The notes below the pieces were generated by a model that was not told the origin of the DNA, did no database searches, and saw only the letters and a list, made by a program, of their open reading frames with translations. A stretch of DNA of 56,302 nt from a virus. The DNA lies in UHGV virus genome UHGV-0090450; one strand, written 5' to 3'. The position numbers and the translations under genes are program-made. Below are positions 30,825 to 49,696 of the stretch, piece by piece. How positions within the stretch are numbered: the stretch's first letter is position 1; each line of letters opens with the position of its first letter.

Positions 30825-31399
30825 CAAACGATGATTACATCCGTCTGTTGTCAGCACTGTTGCCGCCCGGTCCGGCGTGGTCAGCCAGCGATCCGGCGAT
30901 TGCCGGTGCGGCACCGTCATTAACCCGCGTTCATCAGCGTGCGGATGCCCTGATGCGGGAGCTGGATCCGCGCACCACCACCGAACTGATAAATCGCTGG
31001 GAGCGTCTGTGCGGCCTGCCGGATGAATGTATTCCCGCAGGGACACAGACCCTTCGCCAGCGTCAGCAACGACTGGATGCGAAGGTTAACCTGGCGGGCG
31101 GCATCAATGAGGATTTTTACCTTGCACAGCTTGCTGCCCTGGGCAGACCAGACGCTACCATCACGCGATACGACAAAAGCACGTTCACCTGCTCATCTGC
31201 CTGTACTGACGCGGTGAATGCGCCGGAATGGCGGTATTACTGGCGGGTCAACATGCCAGCCGCCACCAACACCACCTGGATGACATGTGGCGATCCCTGT
31301 GATTCCGCACTGCGTATCTGGGGGGACACCGTTGTCGAGTGCGTGCTTAACAAACTCTGCCCGTCGCATACCTACGTAATTTTTAAATATCCGGAGTAA
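30815..31399 (+). CDS. tail protein (Mu gp48 / DUF2313-like)
   Basis: Position. Confidence 0.7.
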
Positions 31400-31402
31400 T
31401 TC

Positions 31403-32329
31403 ATGCATCGTATAGACACGAAAACCGCGCAGAAGGATAAGTTCGGCGCGGGTAAGAACGGTTTTACCCGTGGTAACCCCCAGACCGGCACACCTGCCAC
31501 CGATCTGGATGATGACTACTTTGACATGTTGCAGGAGGAACTTTGCAGTGTTGTGGAGGCATCCGGTGCCAGTCTGGAGAAGGGGCGGCACGATCAGTTG
31601 CTTACCGCACTTCGCGCGCTGCTGTTAAGCCGCAAGAATCCGTTTGGCGATATCAAATCGGACGGCACGGTGAAAACGGCTCTCGAAAACCTTGGTTTGG
31701 GAGATACAAGCGGATACGTGGGACGCTGGGTGAATACCCGGGTTTTCACGTCATCAGGTACGTACACCCCGACGCCAGGAACAAAACGGATCAGGGTCAC
31801 AATAACGGGCGGCGGTGGCGGAGGGGGCGGCTGCAAGGCTATATCCAATAATGAAACGTTTTTCGGTGCTGGCGGTGGGGCCGGTGGAACAATAATTTCA
31901 ATAATGACCCCGACACAGAATAGTTATCCAGTCACTATCGGCGCAGGTGGGGCCGGTGGTGTTAGTGCGACGTACGGCATCAATGGCGGTAATAGCTTAT
32001 TCGCATCGTTAATTGCTCCTGGTGGCGCAGGCGGCGGAAAGTCAGGAGTCACAAACACAAACGGTGGTAACGGAGGTGTGCCGAGTACTGGCGGTATCAA
32101 CATCATTGGTGGAAATGGAGGCGACGGTCAGTCCGGAAATATCGGCGTCAGCGGTGAAGGCGGAACATCGTACTGGGGGGGCGGTGGACGCGCAGGCGCT
32201 GGCGGTGGTGTTAGTGGTAAGGCATATGGTTCAGGTGGCGGTGGCGCATACGATGCCGGCTATAGCGGAACCAGTATGACAGGCGGGAAAGGTGCTGCTG
32301 GGATTTGTATTATCGAGGAGTTTGCATAA
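31403..32329 (+). CDS. tail fibre protein with Gly-rich C-terminal domain
   Basis: Conserved fibre N-terminus, long GGxGG repeats. Confidence 0.8.
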
Positions 32330-32745
32330 TGAATGCGTCATATGCAGTTATTGAAAATGGGATGGTTGTGAATGTCATTGTCTGGGATGGCGAGGCTGAA
32401 TTCACAGTGCCGGATAATCAGCAGCTCATTGATATTTCTGATATCAGTGAGCATCCCGGAATCGGCTGGGGGTATTCAGACGGGGTATTTACTGCGCCGC
32501 TCCCTCCGGAACGTTCTCATGATGAACTGGTAGCTGACGCTGAACAGAAAAAACAGTCGCTGATAGACGCAGCAATGGCCAATATCAGCGTGATTCAGTT
32601 AAAGCTGCAGGCCGGGCGCAAACTGACGCAAGAAGAAACTACCAGACTTAACGTTGTGCTGGATTATATCGAGGCTGTGACGGCAACAGATACCAGCATT
32701 GCACCGGATATTGAGTGGCCGGATGAACCGTGCTTCGCTGAATAA
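32329..32745 (+). CDS. tail fibre assembly protein
   Basis: Start overlaps fibre stop (TAATG); track ORF begins at 32305. Confidence 0.7.
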   Translation: MNASYAVIENGMVVNVIVWDGEAEFTVPDNQQLIDISDISEHPGIGWGYSDGVFTAPLPPERSHDELVADAEQKKQSLIDAAMANISVIQLKLQAGRKLTQEETTRLNVVLDYIEAVTATDTSIAPDIEWPDEPCFAE

Positions 32746-32809
32746 AATCTGTTGAGGAGAAGCGGTTTAATTGTAACTCAATTCTTTTTGTGTAATAAAA
32801 GTAGGATAA

Positions 32810-32858
32810 AACTGTGACACATAAAGCCTCGCAATGGTTTGCAAGGCTTTGAACGCTT
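32810..32858. repeat. about 50-bp hairpin-containing repeat, copy 1
   Basis: ACAAAACTG(T/A)GACACATAA(A/G)GCCTCGCAATGG(T/C)TTGCAAGGCTTT; second copy at 40043-40090, direct orientation, about 90 percent identical. Confidence 0.65.
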
Positions 32859-33005
32859 CTATATTGAGGATGTGACGCGGTTTCGTTTATTTCCATTCTA
32901 TATATTGATGTCGATTTTTATGAATATAGAGCATACGGATAAACTGCAGTGTGATTAGAGTCAAAGTAATAGTTGTTGACTCTAATCATTGCAAAGTGAC
33001 TTTAC

Positions 33006-34073
33006 TTAATGAAATTTATCTCGGATGAATTGTTGCGATGGCTTTTCAATGAATATATATGACATATAGCTAATTGCCATTAATGTAAGCATGAATAAAA
33101 TGAATACCTTGGGGCTGTAAAAAAGATCGCGTCCATAGCCAATCTTGTCAGCTAAATAAACAACAATGATTTGCAAAGGAAAATGTAAAAGATAAGATGA
33201 ATAACTGATATCACCCAACCATTCAATTTTCTTCCCAAAATCGTTTCGTATTGCGCTAATTGATACAAGGAAAAAGATTATGGAGGTAAATCCGAATAAG
33301 ATAATTGAGAATATATCTGCTACTTGCAGGGTAAAGATAACTCCCCATGAGATCAATAGAAAAACACAAGCAAAAATAAAAAATAATTTTGCGCTAATAT
33401 TTTTTATGACCGCAATCGTAATTTTATAGGTCAGACCACCAATAAAGAAAGAGAATGCGCCGATCATTATGGGATTGTTAATTTTGAAAAAGTAGTACGA
33501 CAATGCAACTATTAAAATTGATATGAATGTTGTTTTTGATGTGAACTTGCATAATATAAAAAATATCATGTACATAAGTACTTCAATCGACACGGACCAT
33601 GTCGGGGCGTTGAAGGACCAACCTCGCTCAAATCCCCATGATTGAATCATCAATAAATTCAGAATGGCATGGTAAATGTCATTCATAGGATAAACAAAAA
33701 AATAATTATGACTTTTAAAGAAAATAATTTGTAATATTGCCACGACAGCAAATGTAAATATATAAAGTGGATATAATCTACTGACACGGTTAACTATAAA
33801 AGTTTTTGCTGAGGTTTTATTGCTGTGTATATTGTCAGCGTATAGATAAAAAAATATGAATCCAGAAATCATAAAAAACAATTCGACAGCATATAAACCG
33901 TAATGATAAAAAACGGAAAAAAATTCATAAAAAGGTTGGCGGTTTATGATTATGTCAGATGCAGCATTCTTTTTCATAAAAAAATGTTGCCAATGCCATA
34001 ACACAACGGAAAGTGCGGCAAATCCTCTCAGAACATCCAGGGTATATATTCTCTTCCCAAAAAAATTCGTCAC
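33006..34073 (-). CDS. acyltransferase family 3 integral membrane protein (O-antigen acetyltransferase-like)
   Basis: About 10 predicted TM helices; N-terminus LDVLRGFAALSVVLWHWQHFF; very AT-rich. Confidence 0.85.
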   Translation of the reverse strand: MTNFFGKRIYTLDVLRGFAALSVVLWHWQHFFMKKNAASDIIINRQPFYEFFSVFYHYGLYAVELFFMISGFIFFYLYADNIHSNKTSAKTFIVNRVSRLYPLYIFTFAVVAILQIIFFKSHNYFFVYPMNDIYHAILNLLMIQSWGFERGWSFNAPTWSVSIEVLMYMIFFILCKFTSKTTFISILIVALSYYFFKINNPIMIGAFSFFIGGLTYKITIAVIKNISAKLFFIFACVFLLISWGVIFTLQVADIFSIILFGFTSIIFFLVSISAIRNDFGKKIEWLGDISYSSYLLHFPLQIIVVYLADKIGYGRDLFYSPKVFILFMLTLMAISYMSYIFIEKPSQQFIRDKFH

Positions 34074-34623
34074 AACGAACCTCTTTTAATAAAGTCAAGT
34101 GATAATGAAAGATAAATATTGTAAACGAAAAAACACTGGACTGGAACATATATCTCTGCTTGTAATTTACCCAAGATAATTTTACTAACGCAGTCATAAT
34201 TCGTTCATGTATACCAGATGAAAGTACATGTTCTATGAAATAGGGTTTTGCCTGGAGTTTGAAGGTTTTTAACGATTATACCTGTTTAATCGACTCCCCA
34301 TGTTTTTTGACATTATCCACCGCACACGATACTGGATGCCAGGTAAACTGATTTGCTGGCATAAAGTCACTGAGAATTTTTTACCAACAATATCTTGCCA
34401 CATCTTTTCCCGCACAGTTTCGGCAATAGAATCAGCGGGCAGCGGTCATCAATATTCACCAGACATTGATCTGCCGCACTATCTGACCGGTGTCCTGCTG
34501 AGAATACTAATTTCTTTTTTTGCAAGTGCTGTCCAATCATGATTGGGGGGGGCCGGCGGAGTTGAAACCGCAGGTACGTTGTATGCAATAACGTGCTGCG
34601 GTTTAATCTTATCAATTGAATAC

Positions 34624-35493
<870 letters not shown>

Positions 35494-36032
35494 CTAACCC
35501 TTTGAATTTACATAGCGCAAAAAGATACCTTTCCTCATAATGTGAGCTAATTTTATGTTTCGTTTGATGATCGGATCGGTCTCGAAACCCGTAGCCACGT
35601 CGTATGCAAGAACGTGCTACGACTGGCTGGTGAACTTCCGATAGTGCGTGTATTGAATGATTTCCAACTGTTATCGATTTTGCGTATTTTTTGCATGAGA
35701 GGATTTTTACCTCCTCCCACCGATCCTCCATGGCTTTACGCCAGTGTCTCTGGTCTGCTATGTGCCAGAAGCGGAAGTTCCCACTATTATGCTCTGCATC
35801 GATACCGGGAAGGTACTTAAGTCCCCCGGTATTCACTGATATTATCCTCCAGCTACCGCAATGCCGCCCAATCTGGTATGGCTTAGCTAGCCAAGTAACT
35901 GCTGGCAGAAAGGCCTCTTCAAGCATACCATCCGGATTTACCGATGAGATTTCCCATCCAGCACGGAAATGATACTTTCTACTGACCCCAGATTTTTACT
36001 AAGACAATAAAGATACTGGATTCAATGAGGGG

Positions 36033-38597
36033 TTATTTCATAAGAGTGCGCCTTGTTTTGATCTGATCACGCCATTCTTTTAACGTGCTTATATCCGCTC
36101 GCAGCTCCTTATACTCTGGTATAGAAGCTGGCATTTCCGTCGACTGGCTGTGCTCATAACAGCTGTATTTAGTCATGAGGCTTTCAATCAATTTACAGTC
36201 TTCTGCAGTTATATCCTGTACATACGGAAGCCTTCCGTCAGTCTGGATTCCTCTTCTATGACGTATAACTACCCCGTTAAATAAATCCTCCTCGACAGAG
36301 CGCTCAATGAGTTTACGAAAATCACTGCAAACGCCCTGAGCTAGCCCACGGAAAGCTATTGCGCCATGTTCTTGTCCAGATTTGTAGGCTGAATCCAGCC
36401 TAGTCAGGAGAATGTTATTCGCTGATTTGGTATTCGCGTTCCAGACCTCCTGATCGGCAGGATGACCGGCAGCTCCATCAAATGATTCAATACATATCGA
36501 TTTATGGTGCTGCTTTTTCCATGGGTCTCCCTCTTTTCTTGCCAAATCTTCAATTACCCCGTAAAGGGAAAGTCTGTGCGTTAAAATAATCACCTGACGC
36601 GATTTAGCGAGTTCAACGAGGCGTTTAGCAACTTGCCACTCAAATTCGTGGTCCAGAGATGAAATAGGGTCATCAAAAATGAAGGGAGCAGATCCCGGCC
36701 GATCAGTGACATCGGCTAAAAATGCAGCCAGTGAGATAATCCTACGTTCTCCTTCACTCAGAACATTGTGCAACTTGTCCCGTTGCGCTCCTTTTAGCTG
36801 TAGCTGATGCAAAACTTTCGCATTTTCTGTCCTTATTTTCACAAGCTCAACCTGCAAGCCAGGAGCACCAAGAACTTTCAGCTCACGGTTGAATCTGGCG
36901 GCATAGGCTTCAGTGACAACTTTCTGAGTAATATCAGCAGATTTAGTTGATAATGCACGGGAAGCGGCAAGTGATATCCATTCATCAAATTCACTTCTTT
37001 TTTTTAAGCGTTCAACTTCGGCTCTGATAGCCTCGGCTTGACCAGATAACCACCGTCGAGCTTCGGCTTCGTTTTTATTCTGCAAAGCTTTGGCCCTGTC
37101 AAATCCTGCTGCATCTCTCTGAAACTGGTCGGCTTCTCCCTGAAGCCGGTCGCGGTAAGTACGTAAATTCGTGATAGCTTCGGTCAAATCAGCCAAAGGA
37201 ACTGCTGTCTGGGTAGCTTCATGCTCGGTGAGCGCCTGACGACTGAGGGATGCGGAACTCCATATTCCCGTTAGGTATTTATTCCATTCTTCCTGAATCG
37301 CAGCGCTTGCACAAAGGGTAGCAATTTCGGCCATTGAGGGAGGAATAGTTATCGAGCCGATTGCCTGAGCATACAGACACTCAGCTGTGGCAGCATCGCT
37401 CTCAAGACGTGATTGCACGAAAGCCTCAAGATTGTTCAGACGCTGCTGAGCTTCTGCGGATAGAGCCTGATTGCATAAAACACAACAGGCCTCATCTGTT
37501 GCCGGAAAAGCCTTGTCTGGATAGGGCGTCCTTGAATAGTCGCGAGCAGCTTCCCACATGGCACGCCATACAGGTGAGCCAATGCCCTCCAGTGAGTCAT
37601 CTTTTATTCGTTCACTATCAAGCGCAATTCTGCGCTTGCTGATGCTATCAGCACGTAACGCCCGAAGACAGTCGATATTTGACTGGCTAAAAGTCTTTGC
37701 CGTCTGCTCAAGTTGAGTGATGATCTGATTAACAGATGTTTGAACCGCAAGCTTGTTGCGGGCGTTCTCAGCCGGATCTTTAACGTTCAGACGTTCATTC
37801 AAGGCACTAAGCGCTTGCTCATCCGCCTCAGACCAGTTTGTCATCACTGCGATATTTTCGGTAGTTGCTGTACTTAGTGCACTATAGGTAGTGGCAATAT
37901 GACAACGCTGATAAACAGCAGGTAGTTCGGGAAGTTTGCTGACTAGCTGAGACTGTTCATCCCTTAGCTTATCGCGTACCAGTTTCAGGTACTGGGCCAG
38001 TTTTTCAAAAAGCCCCACCACACTCGGTATATAGGTAGCGGCACTCTCTTGGGTGAGATAATGCAGAGATTCATCCGTATCGAAGATATCAATGCCTTTC
38101 AGGGCATCGATCGGAGGGCTGTCAGCTGACCAGTCCGCTTCAGCATTGCTTTCATTCGCTTTCCATTTAATGTGGCAACTTCGCTCAGGTGGTAAGGGAT
38201 TAAAGACATTAGAGTTAAGCTGAGCTGCTCTAGGTTTTCCGGACATACGTTTGAGCACACGCGTATAGCTGGATTTACCGGACCCGTTATGGCCGTAAAT
38301 AACAGTCAGATTCCCTGAACCGAAATCGAGCGGTAAACGTGGAGCAAGGTTCTCAATACCCTTTACAGCTTCGATCCGACTTAACCTGAGTGTTCCAGAT
38401 CCCTGCTCTGCAGATGCTAGGCCTAGGAAAGTATGGTGTGTCGTTTTTGTTCGTCCATGGGGGGTCTTGAGTAAAGCAATAACCTGCTGAAGGTCATTAT
38501 CTGTCAGGTCATCCTGTTGAATGAGTCTTTCCGCTAGTTCCTGAAACCAGTCCTGCTGCTTTAACAGCCAGGCTATGATATCGGCCTTTACATCCAT
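36033..38597 (-). CDS. RloC-like ABC/SMC-type ATPase with coiled-coil insertion and CxxC zinc hook (AAA_13-like)
   Basis: Walker A VIYGHNGSGKSS, signature LSEGERRIISLAAFLA, Walker B FIFDDPISSLD, H-loop ILTHR, CVLC within the roughly 500-aa insertion; RBS AGGAGGG. Confidence 0.7.
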   Translation of the reverse strand: MDVKADIIAWLLKQQDWFQELAERLIQQDDLTDNDLQQVIALLKTPHGRTKTTHHTFLGLASAEQGSGTLRLSRIEAVKGIENLAPRLPLDFGSGNLTVIYGHNGSGKSSYTRVLKRMSGKPRAAQLNSNVFNPLPPERSCHIKWKANESNAEADWSADSPPIDALKGIDIFDTDESLHYLTQESAATYIPSVVGLFEKLAQYLKLVRDKLRDEQSQLVSKLPELPAVYQRCHIATTYSALSTATTENIAVMTNWSEADEQALSALNERLNVKDPAENARNKLAVQTSVNQIITQLEQTAKTFSQSNIDCLRALRADSISKRRIALDSERIKDDSLEGIGSPVWRAMWEAARDYSRTPYPDKAFPATDEACCVLCNQALSAEAQQRLNNLEAFVQSRLESDAATAECLYAQAIGSITIPPSMAEIATLCASAAIQEEWNKYLTGIWSSASLSRQALTEHEATQTAVPLADLTEAITNLRTYRDRLQGEADQFQRDAAGFDRAKALQNKNEAEARRWLSGQAEAIRAEVERLKKRSEFDEWISLAASRALSTKSADITQKVVTEAYAARFNRELKVLGAPGLQVELVKIRTENAKVLHQLQLKGAQRDKLHNVLSEGERRIISLAAFLADVTDRPGSAPFIFDDPISSLDHEFEWQVAKRLVELAKSRQVIILTHRLSLYGVIEDLARKEGDPWKKQHHKSICIESFDGAAGHPADQEVWNANTKSANNILLTRLDSAYKSGQEHGAIAFRGLAQGVCSDFRKLIERSVEEDLFNGVVIRHRRGIQTDGRLPYVQDITAEDCKLIESLMTKYSCYEHSQSTEMPASIPEYKELRADISTLKEWRDQIKTRRTLMK

Positions 38598-39120
38598 TAC
38601 TGCCCTCCTTCATTCATGACGATAAAGGAAGCGAAACTGAATGCGCCTCCCAGCACATTGCTACCACGCCCTAGTGTGTGGCGTTAAGAATCATCTGATA
38701 GTGCATCAGCCACTTGAGATGAGCAACACTTGATCAACAAAAATTGGCAATAGTGTATCCGTAATCCACAGTAAAATGCTCACGCTCCAGTAGATCCCGA
38801 AATGAAGTCTGCTCACTAAACGTCTGCGGGGACTTCGCTACAGGTTTGCAGACGAGGCATAAGTATCTTAACTTTTGGCGACTGGGCAGTGATATATAAA
38901 GGTGAGATTAAAATTATCCGAATGATTTCATCGCTATGATATTAGCCTTGATCAGTATCATAAAACCTAAGCCGTCCGCTGCTCGATCACAGTAACCGTG
39001 TTATTCATGGCCTGTCTGCAACCAAGCTTTCTTAGATCAGTGTGTGTTGAACAATGGGGGAACAGGTCATCATAAAGGCACTTAGGGATTTAAATTCCGA
39101 AAGTGCCTCTTATTAATTTT

Positions 39121-39657
39121 TTACTTAACAAGTTTAATTGTTATGCCTGAGTTAGGGCCAGGAGGAACGCCTAATGCTGTATCTACACCTGGGTTATTAC
39201 GTAAATCATCAAGAATTTCTTCCGGTCGGAACTTTTTCCCGATAACAGCTTGAGATTCAGGGCGTGGATTTTCTGAGTGTCTTGCTCGGTAAGCTTCAAC
39301 AAATTCAATTCCTTCTGCTATTGCTCGCGAGCTCAAGCCTCGGGCAAATAAACGATTGAATTCTCCTTCAGCTAAAGTTCGAGCGGCTGTGTGAGGAACT
39401 TTAGCCTGAATTATCTCAGTGCTATTAGGCTTTCTTCTAGGATAATGGGTGGCCAGTAATCCTCTATTTAGGATTTCTTGCTCAAGCCATGCATCATCAT
39501 GTTGAGATGCTTCTTCTAACAAAGAAGGCCACACAGTCTTACCTTGAGCAGTAAGAAAATTGCTTAAATAAAAACTGTTATTTTCTTTATCAAATTCAAT
39601 TTCTTTAAGCATAAATTTTTTGGTTGAATCATCCAAATCAATATAATTTAAAGACAT
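39121..39657 (-). CDS. hypothetical protein (178 aa)
   Basis: ATG at 39657 (MSLNYIDLDD) preceded by GAGGG; track ORF starts at 39711; palindromic operator-like sequence upstream. Confidence 0.5.
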   Translation of the reverse strand: MSLNYIDLDDSTKKFMLKEIEFDKENNSFYLSNFLTAQGKTVWPSLLEEASQHDDAWLEQEILNRGLLATHYPRRKPNSTEIIQAKVPHTAARTLAEGEFNRLFARGLSSRAIAEGIEFVEAYRARHSENPRPESQAVIGKKFRPEEILDDLRNNPGVDTALGVPPGPNSGITIKLVK

Positions 39658-40042
39658 AAAACCCTCTGCTATATGTAGAAAGAAAACTCCAACCGCACTA
39701 TTAAATTGCAAACCATCTTAAGCAATCATATCTTTTGATGCAAAAGGAAAATTTACCTTTTGCAAAAAGGTTTTTCTTATACCATGAAGTCAGCCCTAGT
39801 ATGGTAACGCACTCACTTGGGCCCTATTGATTAAGACAGCGATAGGTAAGTCATATTTTTATAAGTTATAAGAGCAACTGCGAACTTCCGCTCTTCGCTC
39901 ATAACAGACATAAACTTCAGTTATGGCATAAAGGTATGCATGCTGGGTGGGGAAAGTATGAAGGAAAAGAAGACTGCTGCGCCGTTTGTCGTCACGTTTA
40001 TCTTCATTGGCTATGCAAGTCGTAATACAAGGTGGGACAAAA

Positions 40043-40090
40043 CTGAGACACATAAGGCCTCGCAATGGCTTGCAAGGCTTTACATGTTTT
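40043..40090. repeat. about 50-bp hairpin-containing repeat, copy 2
   Basis: Matches 32810-32858. Confidence 0.65.
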
Positions 40091-40157
40091 GATGTGGTGG
40101 GACGTGTGAGCGCAGTATTGATGGGGTAATACTTTGAATTAGAAGCGGATTCTTATA

Positions 40158-40203
40158 ATTCGTAATGCGAAGGTCGTAGGTTCGACTCCTATTATCGGCA
40201 CCA
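40158..40203 (+). other. 3' fragment of tRNA-Thr (anticodon loop to CCA), att core
   Basis: ATTCGTAATGCGAAGGTCGTAGGTTCGACTCCTATTATCGGCACCA matches the 3' 46 nt of E. coli tRNA-Thr(CGU) as recalled; no matching 5' acceptor strand upstream. Confidence 0.7.
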
Positions 40204-40369
40204 TTCTAATGTCTCCCCAAGTCTACTCAAGTATTTAAAAACCTCTTATAATCCGCATGTTAGCGCCCCTTTTAGTCTTTTGACGTCTACTTAAGTACTC
40301 CAAAATCTACAGTCAATTGGGGGTACTTTTGGGGGTATTTGCTGTTCGGTTTAGTGGAGGTACCCCCAA
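40204..40369. promoter_or_regulatory. putative integrase arm-type sites between att core and int
   Basis: Direct repeats GTCTACT(C/T)AAGTA(T/C)T and GGGGGTA(C/T)TT. Confidence 0.4.
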
Positions 40370-41584
40370 GTGAAACTCAATGCCCGTCAAATAGACACTG
40401 CCAAGCCAAAAGAGAAGGCTTACAAGCTGGCTGATGGTGGTGGTCTGTATCTCTTGGTAAAACCTAGTGGAGGAAAATATTGGCGCTTCAAGTATCGTGT
40501 AGCTGGTAAAGAGAAGCTGTTAGCACTAGGTGTGTATCCTGAAGTTACCTTGGCTGATGCTCGTGCAAAACGTGAAGAAGCTAAAAGGGGTATCGCTGGG
40601 GGTATCGATCCGATGGAAGCGAAACGAGAGGAAAAGATTGCCCGGGAAACGCAGTTAAACAACACCTTCAAAGATATTGCCCTTGAGTGGCACAGCAGCA
40701 AATTAAAAAAATGGTCTGCTGGTTATGCTTCAGACATCCTCGAAGCCTTCAACAAAGATGTGTTCCCTTACATTGGCAAAAAACCAATCGCCGAAATCAA
40801 ACCACTTGAACTGCTGAATGTGCTGCGGCGCATCGAGGGGCGCGGTGCTACCGAAAAAGCCAAAAAAGTGAGGCAGCGATGTGGGGAAGTTTTCCGCTAT
40901 GCAATTGTCACTGGACGTGCTGAGTATAACCCTGCACCGGATCTCACCAGCGCGATGCAAGGTCATGAATCTAATCATTATCCTTTCCTCACAGCCAAAG
41001 AATTACCTGATTTTTTCAAGGCATTGTCCAGTTACTCAGGAAGTGCATTGGTTGTTATGGCGGCTCGTTTACTGATTATCACCGGTTTGCGGACTGGCGA
41101 ACTGCGCGGTGCATTATGGGATGAAATCGATCTCAACAAGGCTATCTGGGAGATACCTGCTTCACGGATGAAAATGCGTCGCCCTCATGTAGTGCCTTTG
41201 TCTGAGCAGGCTCTTTCGCTTATTGGGCAGATTAAAGAACTAACTGGCAATTATCCGCTTATGTTTCCCGGCCGTAATGATCCAAGGAAAACAATGAGCG
41301 AGGCTAGCATAAACCAAGTATTTAAACGCATCGGCTATAACGGAAAGGTTACTGGTCATGGCTTCCGGCACACTATGAGCACCATTTTGCATGAGCAGGG
41401 CTATAACACCGCGTGGATAGAGACACAGCTTGCGCACGTCGATAAAAACTCAATTCGTGGCACATACAACCATGCGCAATATCTGGATGGGCGGCGGGAA
41501 ATGCTTCAGTGGTACGCTGATTATATGGATTCGCTCGAGCATGGCGGAAATGTGGTGCATGGTGAGTTCGGAAAATGCGGGTGA
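40370..41584 (+). CDS. int: tyrosine integrase (P4 type, N-terminal arm-binding domain)
   Basis: N-terminus KLADGGGLYLLVKPSGGKYWRFKYR, C-terminal catalytic region (HGFRHT, LAH...RGTYNH); GTG start after GGAGG; adjacent to tRNA fragment. Confidence 0.9.
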   Translation: MKLNARQIDTAKPKEKAYKLADGGGLYLLVKPSGGKYWRFKYRVAGKEKLLALGVYPEVTLADARAKREEAKRGIAGGIDPMEAKREEKIARETQLNNTFKDIALEWHSSKLKKWSAGYASDILEAFNKDVFPYIGKKPIAEIKPLELLNVLRRIEGRGATEKAKKVRQRCGEVFRYAIVTGRAEYNPAPDLTSAMQGHESNHYPFLTAKELPDFFKALSSYSGSALVVMAARLLIITGLRTGELRGALWDEIDLNKAIWEIPASRMKMRRPHVVPLSEQALSLIGQIKELTGNYPLMFPGRNDPRKTMSEASINQVFKRIGYNGKVTGHGFRHTMSTILHEQGYNTAWIETQLAHVDKNSIRGTYNHAQYLDGRREMLQWYADYMDSLEHGGNVVHGEFGKCG

Positions 41585-41706
41585 CTGGTTGAGTATACAG
41601 TAGTAGACTTTGAGCGACGAAAGAAAAGGCTGTGTCTAGGGTCGCTCCCGAAAATCCGTACACCTCGACGGACTGGTACAGCCACTACAGTAGAGGACGC
41701 TGAGGT

Positions 41707-42510
41707 GTGCGTATGATTGATATTCATGCCGAATTAAACGAATACAAAAAAGATTTTATTTCTTTACGTGAATTTCTTGAGGTCGTGCTTAAGGTCGCTG
41801 GTGATGATTATGATGTTTCAGATGTCATAACTTGGATACTCAGGAGAATAAGCGGAGAACATATCCGCCTGTACACAGTAAATGAATTTAAGCTGTTGGA
41901 ATCTTTTTGTAACCCGTATCGGGATGAATTTGATAATGATGTTCTTTATAGAAATCTGAATGCGGTTCGGAAACGTGGTTGTTTACCTGGTGAGAGGGAT
42001 GAAAATGGTTTTCTGGTGTCCGGTTATTGGGAAGATCCCGAATTTGAGAACATTGGATTTATAAGGGGTGAAATTTTCGCAATTTTTCCCGATGTCCTTG
42101 ACGCGTTAACGAAGCTGGAAGGCGCTAACTCTTCTGAAAATGACGAGGCACAAGGACGCGATATTGAAAAGAAAGAGTTGCGTACAGAGGATGATTTATT
42201 ATCCCAAATCGCAATGCTGGAAAAAGAAAACGCAGAGTTAAGGGCAAGGATAGAGCAGTTAGAGCAAGAGCGCCCGATACACTTATATAAATACTGGGAT
42301 AAAGACCCATTAGCTAAGGCTATTGAGATTAGAAACAGAGAGTGGGCCAATTACGATCCAGAAAATGATTTTGCCACCAGGGGAAATCAAGAAGCGATAA
42401 CCAGGGAGCTTAAGCAGTGGGGGGCAAGTAATGCACTTGCAACGCTCATAGAGAGGACTGCCTGCCCTATTAACCGAGACAACAGCCAAAAGAACGCAAA
42501 GCCGGATTAA
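41707..42510 (+). CDS. hypothetical protein (267 aa) with C-terminal coiled coil
   Basis: AT-rich ORF between int and alpA; no recognised domain. Confidence 0.5.
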   Translation: MRMIDIHAELNEYKKDFISLREFLEVVLKVAGDDYDVSDVITWILRRISGEHIRLYTVNEFKLLESFCNPYRDEFDNDVLYRNLNAVRKRGCLPGERDENGFLVSGYWEDPEFENIGFIRGEIFAIFPDVLDALTKLEGANSSENDEAQGRDIEKKELRTEDDLLSQIAMLEKENAELRARIEQLEQERPIHLYKYWDKDPLAKAIEIRNREWANYDPENDFATRGNQEAITRELKQWGASNALATLIERTACPINRDNSQKNAKPD

Positions 42511-42519
42511 CGCACCATA

Positions 42520-42675
42520 CCGCATACCCTGAGGGTGATTTACTGTTACCCTGAGGGTATTTTTTTATCTTCCCCGTCAATTTTACCATCACCCTTAGGG
42601 TAGATTTCCTCCCGATTACCATCACCCTTAGGGTAGATTTCCTTCCGGTAACCATTAGGCCTGAGGGTATGAAAA
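42520..42675. repeat. five copies of ACCCT(G/T)AGGGT-containing repeat upstream of alpA
   Basis: Includes two identical 26-bp units ACCATCACCCTTAGGGTAGATTTCCT. Confidence 0.65.
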
Positions 42676-42737
42676 TATTCGTTATTTCTGTGCCATGATT
42701 ACCTCGTCAAATTGAGTAGACGTTATGAGGTAAATAT

Positions 42738-42935
42738 ATGTCAAATACGCTTATTCGTTTAACAGAAGTTCAGCGTAGAACTGGATATAGCAAGGCATGG
42801 ATTTATCGCCTTATGGGGCAAGGTAAATTTCCTGCATCAGTTAAAATTGGCTCGCGAGCTATTGCTTTCGTTGAGAGTGAAATTGACGAGTGGATTAATC
42901 AGCGTATTGCGGAATCACGCGGAACAGCTACCTGA
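42738..42935 (+). CDS. alpA: AlpA-family transcriptional regulator / excisionase-like
   Basis: 65 aa, LTEVQRRTGYSKAWIYRLMGQGKFP HTH. Confidence 0.85.
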   Translation: MSNTLIRLTEVQRRTGYSKAWIYRLMGQGKFPASVKIGSRAIAFVESEIDEWINQRIAESRGTAT

Positions 42936-43012
42936 TTAAATGGCTACGGGGCTATTGCCCCCAGCTATCCACCAGCAAATAAAAGTAACTTAATTCGATA
43001 GCAGGAGTTTTT

Positions 43013-43420
43013 ATGAAATTTCCAAAAACGCCCGTACAGGGGCGGGGCTTCGTTCGGCCTGAAAACCAGAATCTGCAAAATTTCGGCGAAATTATCCCGA
43101 TTATTTCCGGCGTTATTGGCGGGAGTGAAACCACTATTGTTAGCGCCAGAGCGTTATATAAGGCGTTAGGTGTAGGGCGCGTTTTCCGTTCGTGGATCAA
43201 GGGGCGCATTGAAGAATACGGGTTCACGGAAGGCGTGGATTATGAGGTTGTTGAATATTTGAGCCGACCCGATCCGGTGAGCGCAAAATCTCGCCAGCAA
43301 ACCGCTCTTGAGTACATCATCACAGTGAACATGGCGAAAGAACTGGCGATGGTCGAACGTACCGAACAGGGCCGCGCCGTTCGCCAGTACTTTATCAAAT
43401 GCGAGGAGGAGCTACATTAA
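43013..43420 (+). CDS. antirepressor-like protein (ORF6N/AntA-type domain)
   Basis: FRSWIKGRIEEYGFTEGVDY and ITVNMAKELAMVERTEQGRAVRQYFIKCEE match ORF6N/AntA pattern. Confidence 0.65.
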   Translation: MKFPKTPVQGRGFVRPENQNLQNFGEIIPIISGVIGGSETTIVSARALYKALGVGRVFRSWIKGRIEEYGFTEGVDYEVVEYLSRPDPVSAKSRQQTALEYIITVNMAKELAMVERTEQGRAVRQYFIKCEEELH

Positions 43421-43424
43421 GCCA

Positions 43425-43742
43425 ATGTGTGCCGCGCTGGAGGCGTACCGGGCTGAACTGGGTAAAAACACACTCCAGCACCACTACACCACGGAAGCGA
43501 ACATGCTGGCGCGTATCGTGCTGGGTGGCATGACTGCAAAACAGTGGGCACTGGCGAACGGCATTACAGGCGAACCACGCGACCACATGAGCACGTTGCA
43601 GCTTGAGCACCTTTCTTACCTTGAGCAGAGCAATATCACGCTGATTGAGTTAGGCCAGGACTACCACCAGCGGAAGGCTGAATTAATTCGTCTTTCGCAG
43701 CGTTGGTTAGCCCGTCGCATGGAGGAAAACAGCCATGTGTAA
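43425..43742 (+). CDS. hypothetical protein (105 aa)
   Basis: ORF immediately downstream of antirepressor-like gene. Confidence 0.4.
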   Translation: MCAALEAYRAELGKNTLQHHYTTEANMLARIVLGGMTAKQWALANGITGEPRDHMSTLQLEHLSYLEQSNITLIELGQDYHQRKAELIRLSQRWLARRMEENSHV

Positions 43743-44414
43743 CGCTCTGACCGTTACAAAAAGAGAAAGCGCCCCGTTGCCGGAGCGCCTTTGTGAACGA
43801 ATAGCCTACTGCGCCATATTGCTTACTGTCTACGAGGCAGATTATAGCGTTGTGGTCGCACAGAGTGAAGGCGCTGATCACCGTTACTACAGCACGCCAG
43901 AAATGCAGAATATTTTGCTGCAAAATGTCGTTGGTCACACTGTCCGGAAAGCAAAAAATTTTGCTGGTGGCGCGACTGATGCGATTTTGTCAGGTCGCCA
44001 GGTGCTGATCAATCTGATGTCTAATTTCGTTCTGGATAAAACAAAGGCGACCGCAGAGGGCCACCAGTGGGAAAGCTACACACTTGAACACATCGCCAAC
44101 AATGCCAGATTTGCGGCTGGTGGGCAATGTGATCAGTGTGCTGGCTTGCTGGTGGGCTATTCCTGCTCTTTAACATTGCCATGCCGCGATGTTTTCCAGG
44201 TATGCGACCCCATTTTTGTGCGCCTGTACTCTTTAAGGAATTTCTCAAGGATAAACGCACAGGGCGCGAATCTGTCTGACTCATATTCGTACGCTATCTT
44301 TCTGCGCTGTCTTTTCCGTGCCGGTGATGGTGTATTGGTCGATTCTTTGTTGGTCATTCTGTGTACCTGTAAAGCAATGCGCCGGAGTTCCTCACACCAC
44401 GGCGATGATAGTTA

Positions 44415-44720
44415 TTATTCTGATTCTTTGGCCTTGCGGCGCTGGAGTTCTTCACGTGCGACGGTGACGAGCTGCCCGATCTCCTCGACAGCTTTGACTC
44501 CGATTTTTTCTACCTGCGCCAGTGCATTGAGCGAAGAAACCAGGGGATTTTCTCCGCTTCCTTCTGCCTGGCGGCGGGCGATCTCACCACGCATGGCGGT
44601 TACTATGAATCCGGCGTTGCTTTCGCCGTCCAGTTTTACGGATTCCATGCCTTCAAAAGCATCATGTGGGATACGAATTGAAATCTGTTTTGATTTGTCG
44701 TTGATAGTGTTTTTTGCCAT
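44415..44720 (-). CDS. hypothetical small protein (about 101 aa), possible regulator
   Basis: ATG (MAKNTIND) preceded by AGGAGA; track ORF extends to 44759. Confidence 0.45.
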   Translation of the reverse strand: MAKNTINDKSKQISIRIPHDAFEGMESVKLDGESNAGFIVTAMRGEIARRQAEGSGENPLVSSLNALAQVEKIGVKAVEEIGQLVTVAREELQRRKAKESE

Positions 44721-44907
44721 GTGCATTCTCCTAAACAAAAGATGTGATTCAGTATACACAAAAAAGAATCACAAAAAATACTTGACCTGTGATTCAGTTA
44801 AATTTAATTTAAATCACACCTCAGTAAGAGGATATAAACGACAACGCCCCGAACTGTTTGCGGCAGTAGCGGGGCGTCTAACCAAACCGTTAAATGAGGT
44901 AACGATT

Positions 44908-45273
44908 ATGGCTGGGGCACAGCATACCCAAACTCACCCTAAATTTATATACACCTTCCTGGCGGTGCACCGTGATTGCATGGCTGACGGTAAAAACACT
45001 GTTCATGTAGCCGCCGATACGCTGGTTGATGCCTGCGAGATGCTCAATGACATGGGCTATATCTCGGCAACATGGAAAGGGCGCGAAGAAAACACGTTGT
45101 TTATTCAGAAATGCGAAAACAATTTTATCTGGCGTTTTATCGCCCTGAGTACGGCACAACCGCGCGTGATTCACATCGAGGCCACCAGCGAACAGGAAGC
45201 ACGCCAGCAATCTCCTGATGGCTGCGTGATGGTATTCGCTGCCCGTATTCGCCAGGAGGTGGAGCATGTGTAA
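44908..45273 (+). CDS. hypothetical protein (about 121 aa)
   Basis: ATG at 44908 (MAGAQHTQTHPKF) preceded by GAGGT; protein-like composition unlike the upstream part of track ORF 43735-45273. Confidence 0.45.
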   Translation: MAGAQHTQTHPKFIYTFLAVHRDCMADGKNTVHVAADTLVDACEMLNDMGYISATWKGREENTLFIQKCENNFIWRFIALSTAQPRVIHIEATSEQEARQQSPDGCVMVFAARIRQEVEHV

Positions 45274-45490
45274 TGCAACATGGCCTGATGCAGCGGTAGA
45301 CGCTATCAAAACGCTGATGGATTCACTTATTGAGATTTCTGCTATCGCTGGTGTGGCGCATAAACACGCAGCCAGAGAATCAGAATGCATCTCCCATTAT
45401 TTAGCATTTGTGCAGCTGAAAGCCGATCAGGCACTGGATAAGGCCGGAAAAATTATCATGGCTGATGTACAGGAGGTGCACCATGCATAA
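45266..45490 (+). CDS. hypothetical small protein
   Basis: Tightly packed co-directional ORF upstream of primase. Confidence 0.4.
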   Translation: MCNATWPDAAVDAIKTLMDSLIEISAIAGVAHKHAARESECISHYLAFVQLKADQALDKAGKIIMADVQEVHHA

Positions 45491-45848
45491 CCTGTCAATT
45501 TCTGACCTTAACAGCATTCAGTTTGACGAGATATTTTCCGGGCAGCTACTGGTCAACGTGGAGAATGGACGCGTGGTAAGTAATTATCACCTGCCGGATG
45601 GTGCAATTGCCGGAAGCGTTGAAGCATTGCTGGAACTGGCGGAACGTGCGCGACTGATTAAGCCGTCAACGTGCCATCACGATGATGATCTGCATTTTAC
45701 CGGGTGTATGGTGAGTCACTACGAAAACGGCGTTGAAGTATCCTGCGAACGTCTGCGTGATGATTGCTGTTTCGGCACACTGCCGGAATTTATCGAATTG
45801 CTGACCAGTTGCGGTTATCAGGTCATTCAGGGGGGTAAACATGCGTGA
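45465..45848 (+). CDS. hypothetical small protein
   Basis: Tightly packed co-directional ORF; alternative start at 45483. Confidence 0.4.
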   Translation: MYRRCTMHNLSISDLNSIQFDEIFSGQLLVNVENGRVVSNYHLPDGAIAGSVEALLELAERARLIKPSTCHHDDDLHFTGCMVSHYENGVEVSCERLRDDCCFGTLPEFIELLTSCGYQVIQGGKHA

Positions 45849-46074
45849 TGATCGTTTTAATTCCCTGAAACAGGAGTTTGATGGCGCACCGGAAGATACA
45901 TCGGGCGCATTGTTGAGCATTGCTGACATGATGAAAGCTGCATATTTTCTTATCAATACCAGTGGCTACAAGTCAGAGGGTGAAATGATTCTTAGTATTG
46001 CGTCGGACTATGCTGAATATGTGGCAGAGACGCGTTACAGAAGAAAATCTCTGGAGGATGTAAGCCATGCATAA
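45841..46074 (+). CDS. hypothetical small protein
   Basis: Tightly packed co-directional ORF. Confidence 0.4.
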   Translation: MRDDRFNSLKQEFDGAPEDTSGALLSIADMMKAAYFLINTSGYKSEGEMILSIASDYAEYVAETRYRRKSLEDVSHA

Positions 46075-46267
46075 TCATGAAGCGCATGTACCCGTAGTGC
46101 TTAATGTGCCAGATGATTTCACCGGACGCGTGCTGGTTTACCTTGATAAAGAAAAAGTGAAATCACAATGCCGACTGAAAAGTAATGAGATTGTGGGTTC
46201 TCCTGAATTTTTTTCTGAACTCTGTATTCGTGCAGAAATAAAACCGGAACTGCTGACAGGAAAATAA
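46067..46267 (+). CDS. hypothetical small protein
   Basis: Tightly packed co-directional ORF. Confidence 0.4.
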   Translation: MHNHEAHVPVVLNVPDDFTGRVLVYLDKEKVKSQCRLKSNEIVGSPEFFSELCIRAEIKPELLTGK

Positions 46268-46271
46268 AACC

Positions 46272-46562
46272 ATGAAAAGGAAAAATTCTGGCTTTACTGC
46301 CAGCGGTCTCTCTCGGCCTGAAATCAGACACGGAGATATTTACCGCGACACCAGACGTGGGGGACGAGTGGTTATTCGTCACGTTACGCCAGGCAATATC
46401 ACCTACCGCCGTGAGGCTTACGAATATGACTGCGTAATGCCGCGCCGTCAGTTTGAGCGTGATTTTATTCTGGTGGAAAACAAACAACAGGCAGTGGCGA
46501 GACGTGCAGCCACGAATATTAAAAAAATCCGGGCAATGTTGGTTGCGGGAGGTAAGAAGTGA
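46272..46562 (+). CDS. hypothetical small basic protein
   Basis: ORF overlapping primase start. Confidence 0.45.
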   Translation: MKRKNSGFTASGLSRPEIRHGDIYRDTRRGGRVVIRHVTPGNITYRREAYEYDCVMPRRQFERDFILVENKQQAVARRAATNIKKIRAMLVAGGKK

Positions 46563-48364
46563 AAAACGCACCGAATTTAAAATATCAGCCGAAGGATAAA
46601 TTCACCGAGGTAATCATTTTTGCCGGGACGGATGCTTACGCCCATGCTCAACACTGGATTGAAAGCGAAGGACGAAAACACGGCGATAACGTGCCTCCTG
46701 TTTACCTGGGGCCAAAGCAACTGGCAGACCTGGCGAATATCCGCATTGTCGACGATGAACGCCGCTTTGCGCGTGTCTATCTCGCGGGGGAGATAGAGCC
46801 AATCCAGATCAATGCTATTGCTGAAAAGCTGGCGCTGGCTGGTGTACAGGACGCGAAATTATACAAAGGTATCACCGACCGGGAGCCGGAAAACTGGCGC
46901 GACTACCTGCAACGGATCCGCGAACAGGCAGAGAGTGGGGAAGTTTCAGCGATGAAATTAGCCACAAAAAATATTGACCTATCCAGGCCAGCACTAAATC
47001 AGATGGGAGCCAGCCAGAGAGGGGAAGTGTTACTTGAATATTATGGAAGAGCACTGGCTATAAATGATGATTCTGATGTAGTTCACCATTACAACGGAAT
47101 TGTCTGGGTGCCTGTATCTGATAAGGAACTCCAGCGGTCTATGGCGAAGATTTTTATTGATGCTGGAATCAGTTATTCGCAAAACGCCATTAAATTTGCC
47201 GTAGACACAATGAAATTGAGCCTGCCTGTTATGGGCGGGGCAGACAGGAATCTTATTGGATTCAGTAACGGGGTATTTGATACCCGGACGGGAAATTTTC
47301 GGGAGCATAACAAAAATGACTGGTTGTTAAATGCCAGTGAATTACCGTTCAGCCCACCAGCAGAGGGGGAAACGCTGGCAACACATGCGCCGAATTTCTG
47401 GAAGTGGCTGCGTCGTTCGGTGGCAGATAATGATCGTAAAGCTGATCGCGTACTGGCGGCATTATTCATGGTGCTGGCGAACCGGTACGACTGGCAGTTA
47501 TTCCTTGAGGTAACAGGCCCAGGCGGAAGCGGTAAAAGTGTGATGGCTGAGATTTGTACCATGCTGGCGGGTAAGGCCAACACAGTATCGGCAAGCATGA
47601 AGGCTCTGGAAGACGCAAGGGAACGCGCGTTAGTAGTTGGCTTTTCGCTGATTATCATGCCGGATATGACTCGCTACGCTGGCGATGGTGCAGGAATTAA
47701 GGCAATTACTGGCGGCGACAAGGTGGCAATTGATCCGAAACATAAAGCCCCCTACTCCACACGTATTCCGGCAGTAGTGCTTGCGGTAAACAATAACGCC
47801 ATGTCATTCAGTGACCGAAGCGGGGGGATCTCGCGTCGTAGGGTGATATTTAATTTCTCTGAGGTCGTACCGGAGAACGAACGCGATCCCATGCTGGCGG
47901 AAAAGATAGAAGGCGAACTGGCGGTAGTGATTCGCCATTTGCTAACACGATTTACCGACCAGGACGAAGCTAAAAGACTACTTTATGAGCAGCAAAAATC
48001 AGAAGAAGCGCTGTTGATAAAGCGCGAAGGTGATTCACTGGTGGACTTTTGCGGCTATCTGATGTCGTTGGTTAAATGTGAAGGAATGATGGTGGGCAAT
48101 GCGGAAATAGTGCCATTTAGCCCGAGGCGATACCTGTATCATGCTTATTTAGCCTATATGTCAGCGCATGGCCTGGGAAAACCAGTATCACTGACACGCT
48201 TTGGTACTGATATGCCAGGAGCTATGGCGGAATACGGAAAGGAGTATAAGCGGGCTAAATGCACTAAAGGCCCGGATAAAGGGCGAGTGATAACAAATGT
48301 TCTGTTAGATGATGATGCTGATGGCTGGTTGCCAGCAGCTACAGGGATTAACGACAGAACATAA
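46559..48364 (+). CDS. primase / replication protein (P4 alpha-like)
   Basis: 601 aa; Walker A-like GPGGSGKS in C-terminal half; followed by iteron origin. Confidence 0.85.
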   Translation: MKNAPNLKYQPKDKFTEVIIFAGTDAYAHAQHWIESEGRKHGDNVPPVYLGPKQLADLANIRIVDDERRFARVYLAGEIEPIQINAIAEKLALAGVQDAKLYKGITDREPENWRDYLQRIREQAESGEVSAMKLATKNIDLSRPALNQMGASQRGEVLLEYYGRALAINDDSDVVHHYNGIVWVPVSDKELQRSMAKIFIDAGISYSQNAIKFAVDTMKLSLPVMGGADRNLIGFSNGVFDTRTGNFREHNKNDWLLNASELPFSPPAEGETLATHAPNFWKWLRRSVADNDRKADRVLAALFMVLANRYDWQLFLEVTGPGGSGKSVMAEICTMLAGKANTVSASMKALEDARERALVVGFSLIIMPDMTRYAGDGAGIKAITGGDKVAIDPKHKAPYSTRIPAVVLAVNNNAMSFSDRSGGISRRRVIFNFSEVVPENERDPMLAEKIEGELAVVIRHLLTRFTDQDEAKRLLYEQQKSEEALLIKREGDSLVDFCGYLMSLVKCEGMMVGNAEIVPFSPRRYLYHAYLAYMSAHGLGKPVSLTRFGTDMPGAMAEYGKEYKRAKCTKGPDKGRVITNVLLDDDADGWLPAATGINDRT

Positions 48365-48384
48365 TACGAAATTTATAAGCTGAA

Positions 48385-48730
48385 ACGTAAAGGTAGACGG
48401 TTGGTAGACAGATTCACTTAACCCTCTACCAACCATCTACCAATTAATATTTTGAATTATAAAGATATTTTCAATGTGGTAGAGAGGTAGACAGTTATTT
48501 CTATATTCCTAAACCACGGGGGGTATATAAAAAACAGATAGTTAAGGGGGCATTTTTTAAATTTCTCTTTTAACTGTCTACACTGTCTACCATTTAGTAA
48601 AAATCATTAATTATCAATGTATTAATGCGGTAGACCGTTGGTAGACAGTTTGCAGATTGTTTTTTTGTTATGTGTTAATAACATTAAATAAATCAATCAA
48701 TTATATCGGTAGACAGTTGGTAGACAGTTG
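48385..48730. repeat. iteron array GGTAGAC-N-GTTGGTAGACAG (6 copies, both orientations) with AT-rich spacers; probable satellite origin
   Basis: Copies near 48390, 48420 (inverted), 48475, 48575 (inverted), 48626, 48706. Confidence 0.7.
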
Positions 48731-48735
48731 TAACG

Positions 48736-49278
48736 ATGGGGCAAAGCATGACTAAGCTGACCATTAACAGAAAACCAAAAGGTATTTACGGCACGCCGCA
48801 GAAAACGACGCAGGCGGCACAGGAGCAGGATAAAACCACATCGGCGCATAAAGTGATGCCCGGTAACCAGAAAGCGCAGCAGAAGCCTACAGGGGCGACA
48901 CCGTGGCGGCATATGACCAAACGCCAGCGCAAAAACCGCAGGCGCGTTAACCGCCTCACTGAGTTGTGGCCTGACTTATTCAGCCGGGAAGCACTGAAGC
49001 CGCTTAAGGTGGGGATATTCGACGACCTGATGCAGGATCTCGCCGTCAGGGGGCTGGCATTCGGGCCAGGGGCATTGCGTGCGACGCTGGCATCTTATGC
49101 GCAGTGTCCGCGCTATTACCGCGCCTTAATGGCTGGTGGGGTACGCTACGACCTGAAAGGCCAGCCGTGCGGCGAGGTGACACCACAGGAACAACAGGAC
49201 GCAGAAACGCGGCTGGTGGCGCTGAATGAGAAGCGCAAACGCCAGCGCCGGGCAGCAAAGGAGACAATAGGCGCATGA
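48736..49278 (+). CDS. FinO/ProQ-like RNA-binding protein
   Basis: LKPLKVGIFDDL and CPRYYRALMAGGVRYDLKGQPCGEVT match the FinO/ProQ domain pattern as recalled. Confidence 0.6.
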   Translation: MGQSMTKLTINRKPKGIYGTPQKTTQAAQEQDKTTSAHKVMPGNQKAQQKPTGATPWRHMTKRQRKNRRRVNRLTELWPDLFSREALKPLKVGIFDDLMQDLAVRGLAFGPGALRATLASYAQCPRYYRALMAGGVRYDLKGQPCGEVTPQEQQDAETRLVALNEKRKRQRRAAKETIGA

Positions 49279-49562
49279 TTCACGACAGCAAAGCGGAAGC
49301 ACTGGAAGCGCGTGGTCTGTACCGGAGAGCGGCGGCGCGGTGGGCTGAGGTCATCATGCTGGCGAATGATGACAAGGCACGGGAACAGGCGGCAAAACGT
49401 CGCGCGGAATGTATCCACAAGGCAGCACGCCCACCAGCAAGGCAGGATAATTTCGGGGAGATGCGCGAAACCATCAGCCGGGCACATGCCGGGATGGGAT
49501 TACATCAGCCCAATGGTGAGGCATTCAGGAAATACCAAAAAAAGAACAATTGTAGTCAGTAA
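49275..49562 (+). CDS. PerC-family regulator-like protein
   Basis: LEARGLYRRAAARW motif; paralogous to 5217-5711. Confidence 0.55.
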   Translation: MIHDSKAEALEARGLYRRAAARWAEVIMLANDDKAREQAAKRRAECIHKAARPPARQDNFGEMRETISRAHAGMGLHQPNGEAFRKYQKKNNCSQ

Positions 49563-49696
49563 CAGAGGATGGGATTCTCTTGGTTTTTTGTTGATGCTTT
49601 CTGAGGAAATCTACTACGTTGCTGAGCAGATGAATATTCAATTGCATCTGGGTTCCTGATAAGATTAATCTGAATATTTTCATTTGGAATAGGGAT

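Follow-up and report, generated by a model that had tools for sequence, protein, structure and literature searches.

The described phages closest to the locus considered here are the Shigella phages SfI, SfII, SfIV, SfV and SfX, together with Salmonella phage P22, all of which integrate at the tRNA gene thrW, with int beside thrW and the accessory genes beside attR. A 46-base core of attP, attL and attR was published for SfI and is stated to be identical in SfII, SfV, SfX and P22 (PMC3636060). More than one element can occupy this site: a tandem SfI-SfX lysogen at thrW was obtained by sequential infection, and the same experimental work showed that an Sf phage arriving at an occupied site goes into the intact gene, at the attL of the resident element (PMC3306764).

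Related arrangements are known for satellites and for genomic islands. The PICIs follow a gene order of int-alpA, Bro/Ant, replication and late zone, form tandems that are defined by three related att sites, and exhibit "damage" in the tRNA fragments of attR, i.e., acceptor-stem deletions, which the Williams laboratory described at Thr and other tRNA genes (PMC10111431). The gene thrW is also a hotspot for islands, e.g., CP4-6 of K-12, the vat island of B2 and GI-thrW of ST131, and arrays with internal att copies and SfV/P22-type int remnants occur among them. Tandem occupancy of thrW is thus already known, experimentally for phage pairs and from computational catalogues for islands and satellites. 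The arrangement reported below is ordinary in this sense, as its core sequence, its hotspot, its tandem occupancy and its damaged satellite attR have all been described before.

The window, i.e., the whole stretch of 56,302 nt of the virus genome UHGV-0090450 that was analysed, carries at 40158-40203 (+) the sequence ATTCGTAATGCGAAGGTCGTAGGTTCGACTCCTATTATCGGCACCA, which is an exact copy of nt 31-76 of E. coli thrW, tRNA-Thr(CGU), the reference being the annotated tRNA-Thr genes of E. coli 537-20 (L003 10129-10204), F9792 and HUE1. Its first base is the final one of the 5′ anticodon-stem strand; the anticodon loop (CGT), variable loop, T arm and 3′ acceptor strand follow, and the copy closes with the CCA end. 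The 46-mer was matched in none of 100 shuffles. The bases that precede it, ...GCGGATTCTTATA, are not tRNA, and no copy of the 5′ 30 nt of thrW was found in the whole window with up to three mismatches permitted. An earlier note on this DNA, made from the letters alone, had identified a 3′ portion of tRNA-Thr(CGU) with its 5′ part missing, and the comparison with annotated genes confirms this to the base. ARAGORN reported no tRNA gene in the whole window, the Rfam covariance search reported no tRNA at the gathering score in the window, and an Rfam search at E ≤ 10 over 40000-40400 returned chance-level miRNA/DicF-type matches and no partial tRNA. A complete cloverleaf is lacking, and the fragment is not a functional tRNA-Thr gene. 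It is, letter for letter, the 46-base core printed in the SfI paper (PMC3636060), which agrees with the earlier view of an att core duplicate rather than a gene. A promoter and terminator scan of 39600-40500 gave no more candidates than shuffled sequence.

The DNA to the left of the fragment belongs to a prophage of the Sf type. Its structural genes (window 14000-31705) are ~97% identical to Shigella phages SfII, SfI, SfIV and SfV, and window 40033-40205 matches SfIV 23073-23245 with 97.1% identity, an alignment that takes in the core and the 125 nt preceding it and that ends 2 nt past the core. This SfIV segment abuts the SfIV int gene. In many E. coli genomes, the similarity starts at window ~39870-39895 regardless of the cargo upstream of it. 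A tRNA pseudogene that decayed by deletion of its 5′ half, rather than an att duplicate, would explain the absence of that half and nothing further, and it deserves practically no credence: the break coincides exactly with the boundary of the 46-base core in the SfI paper (PMC3636060), the upstream flank is the attP arm of SfIV, and an intact thrW is present at the other end of the prophage. The coincidence with the core boundary and the intact thrW copy rule this reading out.

The last of these points required the surroundings of the window. No second core copy was found within it, either as the full 46-mer, its last 25 nt or its last 17 nt with up to three mismatches, or in a direct-repeat scan of 39800-56302; the core being single, both outer boundaries must lie outside the window, and the window alone cannot show a tandem array. 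A look-up of exact proteins, using the YfdR-like ORF at the left (316-852) and the GapS1-like ORF at the right, led to the ENA assembly ERZ28576441 (FENG15-1_SAMEA3136659_METAG-scaffold_7), which matches the window ends with 0 mismatches over 6,852 nt (left) and 7,649 nt (right). Both overlaps put window base 1 at scaffold position 23209, and the window corresponds to 23209-79510. The scaffold is a segment of an E. coli chromosome within a metagenome assembly, and the array described in the following is read through this match, whose overlap covers 6.9 kb and 7.6 kb at the window ends.

On the scaffold, phoE, proB and proA are followed by an intact tRNA-Thr(CGT) gene that ends 1748 bp left of window base 1 (window-relative -1822..-1747). 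An integrase of 387 aa, encoded on the opposite strand, comes 14 bases past this intact thrW, and xis-like genes also lie left of the window, placing the int-xis end of the prophage together with thrW 0.1-1.8 kb left of base 1. The integrase is 99.5% identical to SfIV Int, 97.9-99% identical to those of SfII, SfI and SfV, and ~90% identical to P22-like integrases. To the right of the window (~725 bp, or ~0.7 kb), at window-relative 57027, stands a third and damaged copy of the core, TCCTATTATC joined to CCA, which is a 13-nt tRNA 3′ end with GGCA deleted (L010 8374); behind it come the native flank TTTAAATCAATAAGTTACCCC..., a LysR pseudogene and paoD. In the empty site of HUE1, thrW is joined directly to this native flank, and the boundaries of the array are therefore as ordered here: proA, thrW, prophage (~42 kb), 46-nt fragment, island (~16.8 kb), damaged remnant, paoD. 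Three co-oriented att copies (the intact gene, the internal fragment and the terminal fragment) are present both on the scaffold and in F9792, and core copies occur at both outer boundaries. The tandem integration of a prophage and a satellite that the earlier note had proposed is thereby substantiated.

With the 46-base core, the attP arm that precedes it, and an intact thrW with the cognate integrase at the opposite end, the fragment has the features of attR in the SfV/P22-family thrW phages, and as such it is the ordinary attR of an Sf-type prophage. The replacement copy of the phage rebuilds a functional thrW at the int end, and the displaced chromosomal 3′ part is consequently orphaned at the far end. 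Unlike the usual Sf attR, the core here is followed by the arm of a satellite rather than by the chromosomal flank. The features of both elements are collected in Table 1.

Table 1. Features on both sides of the thrW fragment, in window coordinates
Feature	Position	Strand	Basis or remark
SfII/SfI/SfIV/SfV-like temperate myovirus prophage, partial in the window	1..40157	.	similarity to Shigella phages; scaffold
Prophage cargo block adjoining attR	33006..39711	-	Pfam, PADLOC; gtrABC position of Sf phages from PMC3636060
Acyl_transf_3 acyltransferase	33006-34073	-	Pfam; possibly O-antigen acetylase
PD-T4-3 GIY-YIG protein	34624-35448	-	cargo block
Two ORFs without assigned function	35453-35926, 39121-39711	-	cargo block
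PDC-S06 AAA ATPase	36033-38597	-	cargo block
Phage arm of prophage attR (P-arm side of SfIV-type attP)	39884..40157	+	SfIV match; onset of similarity in E. coli genomes
Orphan 3′ part of thrW (tRNA positions 31-76), prophage attR core	40158..40203	+	exact match; equals the published 46-base core
Satellite attL identity block TCCTATTATCGGCACCATT	40187..40205	+	comparison with attR copies L010 8374, L003 27026, L007 3518
Satellite attL arm (int-proximal arm of attP) and int leader	40204..40369	+	identical after intact thrW in the solo-satellite genome
PICI-like satellite island, partial in the window	40204..56302	+	attR ~725 bp past the window end
Doubled motif TTGGGGGTACTT/TTGGGGGTATTT, candidate arm-type integrase binding site	40317..40340	+	recurs on the other satellite arm
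Satellite tyrosine integrase, 404 aa	40370..41584	+	Pfam, phrog_1 integrase
int-alpA RNA motif (RF02996)	41629..41696	+	Rfam 45.5 bits, gathering score 35.8
AlpA-family regulator, 65 aa	42738..42935	+	Pfam Phage_AlpA, E = 2.4e-19
Primase/helicase (D5_N, DUF5906, Pox_D5)	46559..48364	+	Pfam, PHROGs
GapS1 antiphage protein, 532 aa, satellite right end	54654-56252	+	NCBIfam, 441 bits, cut-off 320

The junction was read from a metagenome scaffold, and shared repeats can cause assemblers to join contigs wrongly, so that a chimera of a phage contig and a satellite contig fused through the tRNA repeat has to be considered. The repeat is just 46 nt long, however, and the same junction is present in the finished genome of F9792, where it is 99.2% identical over 391 nt and where all three att copies were read. 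Using this 391-nt query, which comprises the phage arm, the core and the satellite arm, the junction was found at a coverage of at least 80% in 167 of 5426 complete E. coli genomes, and a chimera is accordingly very improbable.

The island to the right of the fragment has an existence of its own. From 40158 on, 16,146 nt of the window align with an island of E. coli 537-20 at 99.96% identity, and the alignment starts at the first base of the core; in 537-20, this island stands directly after an intact thrW, with no prophage between them. Its integrase gene begins with a GTG at 40370, i.e., 167 nt after 40203 and at the distance that had been noted before, and RefSeq annotates the same start in 537-20. 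The protein consists of PF13356 Arm-DNA-bind_3 (residues 1-88), PF22022 Phage_int_M (100-194) and PF00589 Phage_integrase (206-371), all above the curated cut-offs. The closest integrases that are carried by phages are of the Sf6/CUS-3 type, with 49% identity, and are annotated as IntS in several records. Thus, the earlier label of a P4-type integrase holds for the three-domain architecture, whereas the nearest phage relatives are Sf6/CUS-3-type and the island as a whole is PICI-like by its gene content. Between the integrase of the prophage and that of the satellite, the best alignment gives 27% identity over 60 residues (E = 0.007), which is no meaningful similarity, and the two enzymes are unrelated.

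The attachment site of the satellite falls inside the 3′ end of the fragment. Comparison of attL with the attR copies shows an identity block made up of the final 17 nt of the fragment plus the TT behind it, and the crossover of the satellite would have to fall within TCCTATTATCGGCACCATT, judging from this block of 10-19 nt identity. The attR deletions of the satellite start after TCCTATTATC: the source scaffold, 537-20 and L008-L011 lack GGCA, and F9792 and L012 lack one G (L003 27026; L007 3518; L012 8374). This agrees with the acceptor-stem deletions of PICIs, which include Thr (PMC10111431), and the 4-nt deletion in the acceptor-stem part of the satellite attR could impair excision.

Several direct repeats precede int, namely GTCTACTyAAGTA... 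(40221, 40285) and TTGGGGGTAyTT (40317, 40329). An inverted copy of the latter motif, TACCCCCAA, occupies 40361-40369, immediately before the start codon of int. The doubled GGGGGTA motif recurs on the opposite arm of the satellite in every copy examined (L010 8293/8305, L003 26942, L007 3439-3458), at ~+132 and ~-80 nt from the centre of the identity block. The doubled motif of the HE-PICIs sits at -81 and +132, i.e., ~81 nt upstream and ~132 nt downstream of the attP centre (PMC10111431). The placement supports the GGGGGTA pair as the probable arm sites of the integrase, although the motif itself differs, reading GGGGGTA in the window satellite and TGTATTGC in the published elements. The repeats upstream of int had been taken as likely arm sites from the start; this view is supported for the GGGGGTA pair, which is on both arms; GTCTACTyAAGTA is confined to the int-proximal arm.

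Taken with the two unrelated integrases, these sites make it highly probable that 40158-40203 is a composite att site left by two independent integrations into a single thrW, being at the same time the attR of an SfII/SfIV-type prophage and, in its 3′ end, the attL of a PICI-like satellite. In the proposed mechanism, the prophage would recombine via the anticodon-loop region, using an integrase of the P22/SfV family and an attP in which tRNA positions 31-76 are present as a replacement copy. The satellite, using its unrelated Arm-DNA-bind_3 integrase, would recombine further 3′, inside TCCTATTATCGGCACCATT, with the last 17 nt of the fragment plus TT serving as the core of its attL and the damaged remnant 16.8 kb downstream serving as its attR. 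Such an arrangement shares with the SfI-SfX tandem (PMC3306764) the two elements in the proA-thrW region and the internal copy of the att core. It differs in that the earlier tandem consists of two phages that share one integrase type and one 46-nt core, whereas the present one pairs a phage with a satellite whose integrase is unrelated and whose shorter core is nested in the first. One tRNA gene can evidently stack elements whose integrases cut at different sublocations. For annotation, the practical gain is that the fragment fixes the limits of two mobile elements to the base, and the downstream island is to be treated as a separate satellite and not as part of the prophage.

With the crossovers nested in this way, the core of each element adjoins its own arm sites, and each element should therefore be able to excise alone, as far as the anatomy of the sites can tell: the phage attR keeps its P arm and the anticodon-stem region, and the satellite attL keeps the T-arm/acceptor region and the int-proximal arm. 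Excision of the phage would join thrW directly to the satellite, which is the arrangement seen in 537-20, and excision of the satellite would leave an ordinary lysogen. The earlier suggestion that two elements sharing one tRNA target can trap or mobilise one another finds no support in the order seen in the window, each core lying next to its own arms.

A functional coupling of the two neighbours, with the SfII-like prophage as the helper of the satellite or with the shared tRNA site as a means of trapping or co-mobilisation, was nevertheless weighed and is thought quite unlikely. E. coli PICIs exploit the HNH/TerS/TerL cos-packaging module of phages, and the prophage of relatives carries such a module, with HNH, a P27-type TerS and TerL; the satellite in turn encodes a weak TerS-like HTH ORF at 52024-52569. 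The recurrence of the junction in the 167 complete genomes also speaks for some association, as does an array of opposite order (see below), in which a P4-type island lies between thrW and the phage int with its P′ arm, the phage itself being a remnant. However, thrW followed by this type of phage int is found in ~24% of complete genomes (1295), and co-occupancy could be chance at a busy hotspot. Both elements also occur without each other, the integrases are unrelated, and the cores in the window adjoin their own arms. A blastn comparison of the satellite with the prophage, including the region around the cos-like site at 13967, gave no DNA similarity, a result that is uninformative for PICIs that redirect packaging.

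The reading as two independent integrations leaves the order of arrival to be considered. Both histories yield the same junction sequence, and nothing in the window discriminates between them. The simplest history has the phage arriving last, into a thrW that already bore the satellite; it is preferred because a 99.96%-identical satellite exists alone at thrW and because an incoming Sf phage uses the intact thrW at the attL of the resident element. The opposite history, in which the prophage came first and the satellite later entered the orphan fragment at the phage attR with its native flank, is given less credence but is far from negligible. The identity block of the satellite lies inside the 46-nt fragment, sequences other than this satellite commonly stand behind a phage attR (query matches of 1-220/225), strain 0H15 has a CP4-6-like island in that place, and an array of opposite order in strain XYEH3783 shows that P4-type elements can enter a thrW already occupied by an SfV-type element. 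Against it stand the solo satellite at thrW and the experimental entry of an incoming Sf phage into the intact gene at a resident attL (PMC3306764), which makes arrival of the phage last the simpler course, while the final sequence is the same in either case.

Arrays at thrW in other lineages show the same hotspot in use. In ST131 (L016 9158-20203), GI-thrW lies between two SfV/P22-type integrase remnants, with an internal copy of the 46-nt core. In XYEH3783, a B2 strain (L015 12733-20160), the elements stand in the opposite order: behind an intact thrW come a P4-type int remnant, the vat island and IS1, and the array continues with a damaged remnant, TATATTATC joined to CATT, an SfV/P22-type P′ arm and an int remnant. 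The P4-type int remnant of this strain has a left arm homologous to that of the window satellite. Unlike the two elements of the window, the thrW islands are for the most part degenerate, with cargo for virulence or restriction, and the vat array is reversed, with the P4-type element beside thrW.

The array of XYEH3783 bears on the question of order. There, the P4-type element was apparently inserted at the phage attL, and the core is no longer joined to the phage int and P′ arm, the phage being reduced to a remnant. The phage P′ arm contains a copy of the first ~18 nt of the native flank of thrW, and this is probably what makes the opposite order possible. An arrangement with the phage proximal and the satellite distal that is forced by the crossover positions was considered as well, and it is ruled out by the opposite order in XYEH3783 and by the mimicry of the flank in the P′ arm. 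The same strain provides the sole, circumstantial support for trapping, as the phage may already have been a remnant when it was cut off. A more general proposal can be formulated, although it is speculative and rather unlikely: a P4-type thrW element may land on either side of an SfV-type prophage, at attR leaving both elements free and at attL (as in L015) locking the prophage, so that thrW satellites and islands would act as order-dependent "prophage locks" and co-residence may reflect a helper-satellite partnership.

The gene content of the island is the basis for its classification. Int, alpA and a primase/replication module are present in an element of ~16.8 kb, within the 10-18 kb of PICIs, and no match to virion genes (capsid, tail) was found among the satellite ORFs scanned. 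The P4-like markers sid, psu and delta gave no PHROG or Pfam match among the 10 largest satellite ORFs. The order of int-alpA, Bro/Ant, replication and late zone corresponds to that of the published PICIs (PMC10111431), and the island is best described, by its predicted genes, as a PICI-like rather than a P4-like satellite. It further encodes an AntA antirepressor, a ProQ/FinO protein, a PerC protein and the GapS1 defence protein. Directly downstream of the primase gene, GGTAGAC-containing iterons (families of 23-38 nt) are clustered at 48392-48730, and this cluster is probably the replication origin of the satellite. Searches of PHROGs, PADLOC and NCBIfam gave no match for the satellite ORFs at 41707-42510, 49697-50839, 50904-51227 and 52943-53527.

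Some minor observations on the satellite may be added. Upstream of alpA, the stretch 42526-42648 contains a 33-nt tandem pair in perfect register (42583-42648) and nearby TACCCTnAGGGTA palindromes, which look like an operator. An ORF of 512 aa at 43735-45273 (+) shows a match over its last ~50 residues only (Icd-like/phrog_6196) and overlaps minus-strand ORFs; in related genomes, the same region holds a short Icd-like gene and small minus-strand genes, and the long ORF is probably fortuitous. The right-end region that contains the GapS1 gene varies among related satellites, which suggests a cargo hotspot adjoining the satellite attR.

The prophage is a member of the family of Shigella serotype-converting phages, but with defence cargo where those phages have gtrABC. 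Its cargo block occupies the position beside attR that accessory genes have in the Sf phages, and it differs from these phages in carrying the acyltransferase and the PD-T4-3 and PDC-S06 defence candidates instead of gtrABC. The cargo at the same spot differs again among relatives: F9792, for example, has a "4-fold beta flower protein" there, and ST361 genomes have a restriction-modification system. In the phage arm of attR, the part at 39887-40092 is 88% identical to a segment of phage 21 and of lambda-21 hybrids near their att/int region, and an 82-nt piece of the arm (40034-40115) is present in the K-12 and REL606 genomes; this part may be an att-proximal module common to e14/21/SfV-type phages. 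A short distance before the small-terminase ORF (14018), window 13967-13976 reads TGCCCGCCCC, which corresponds to the 3′ portion of the SfI cos end as printed in PMC3636060 and is consistent with cos packaging.
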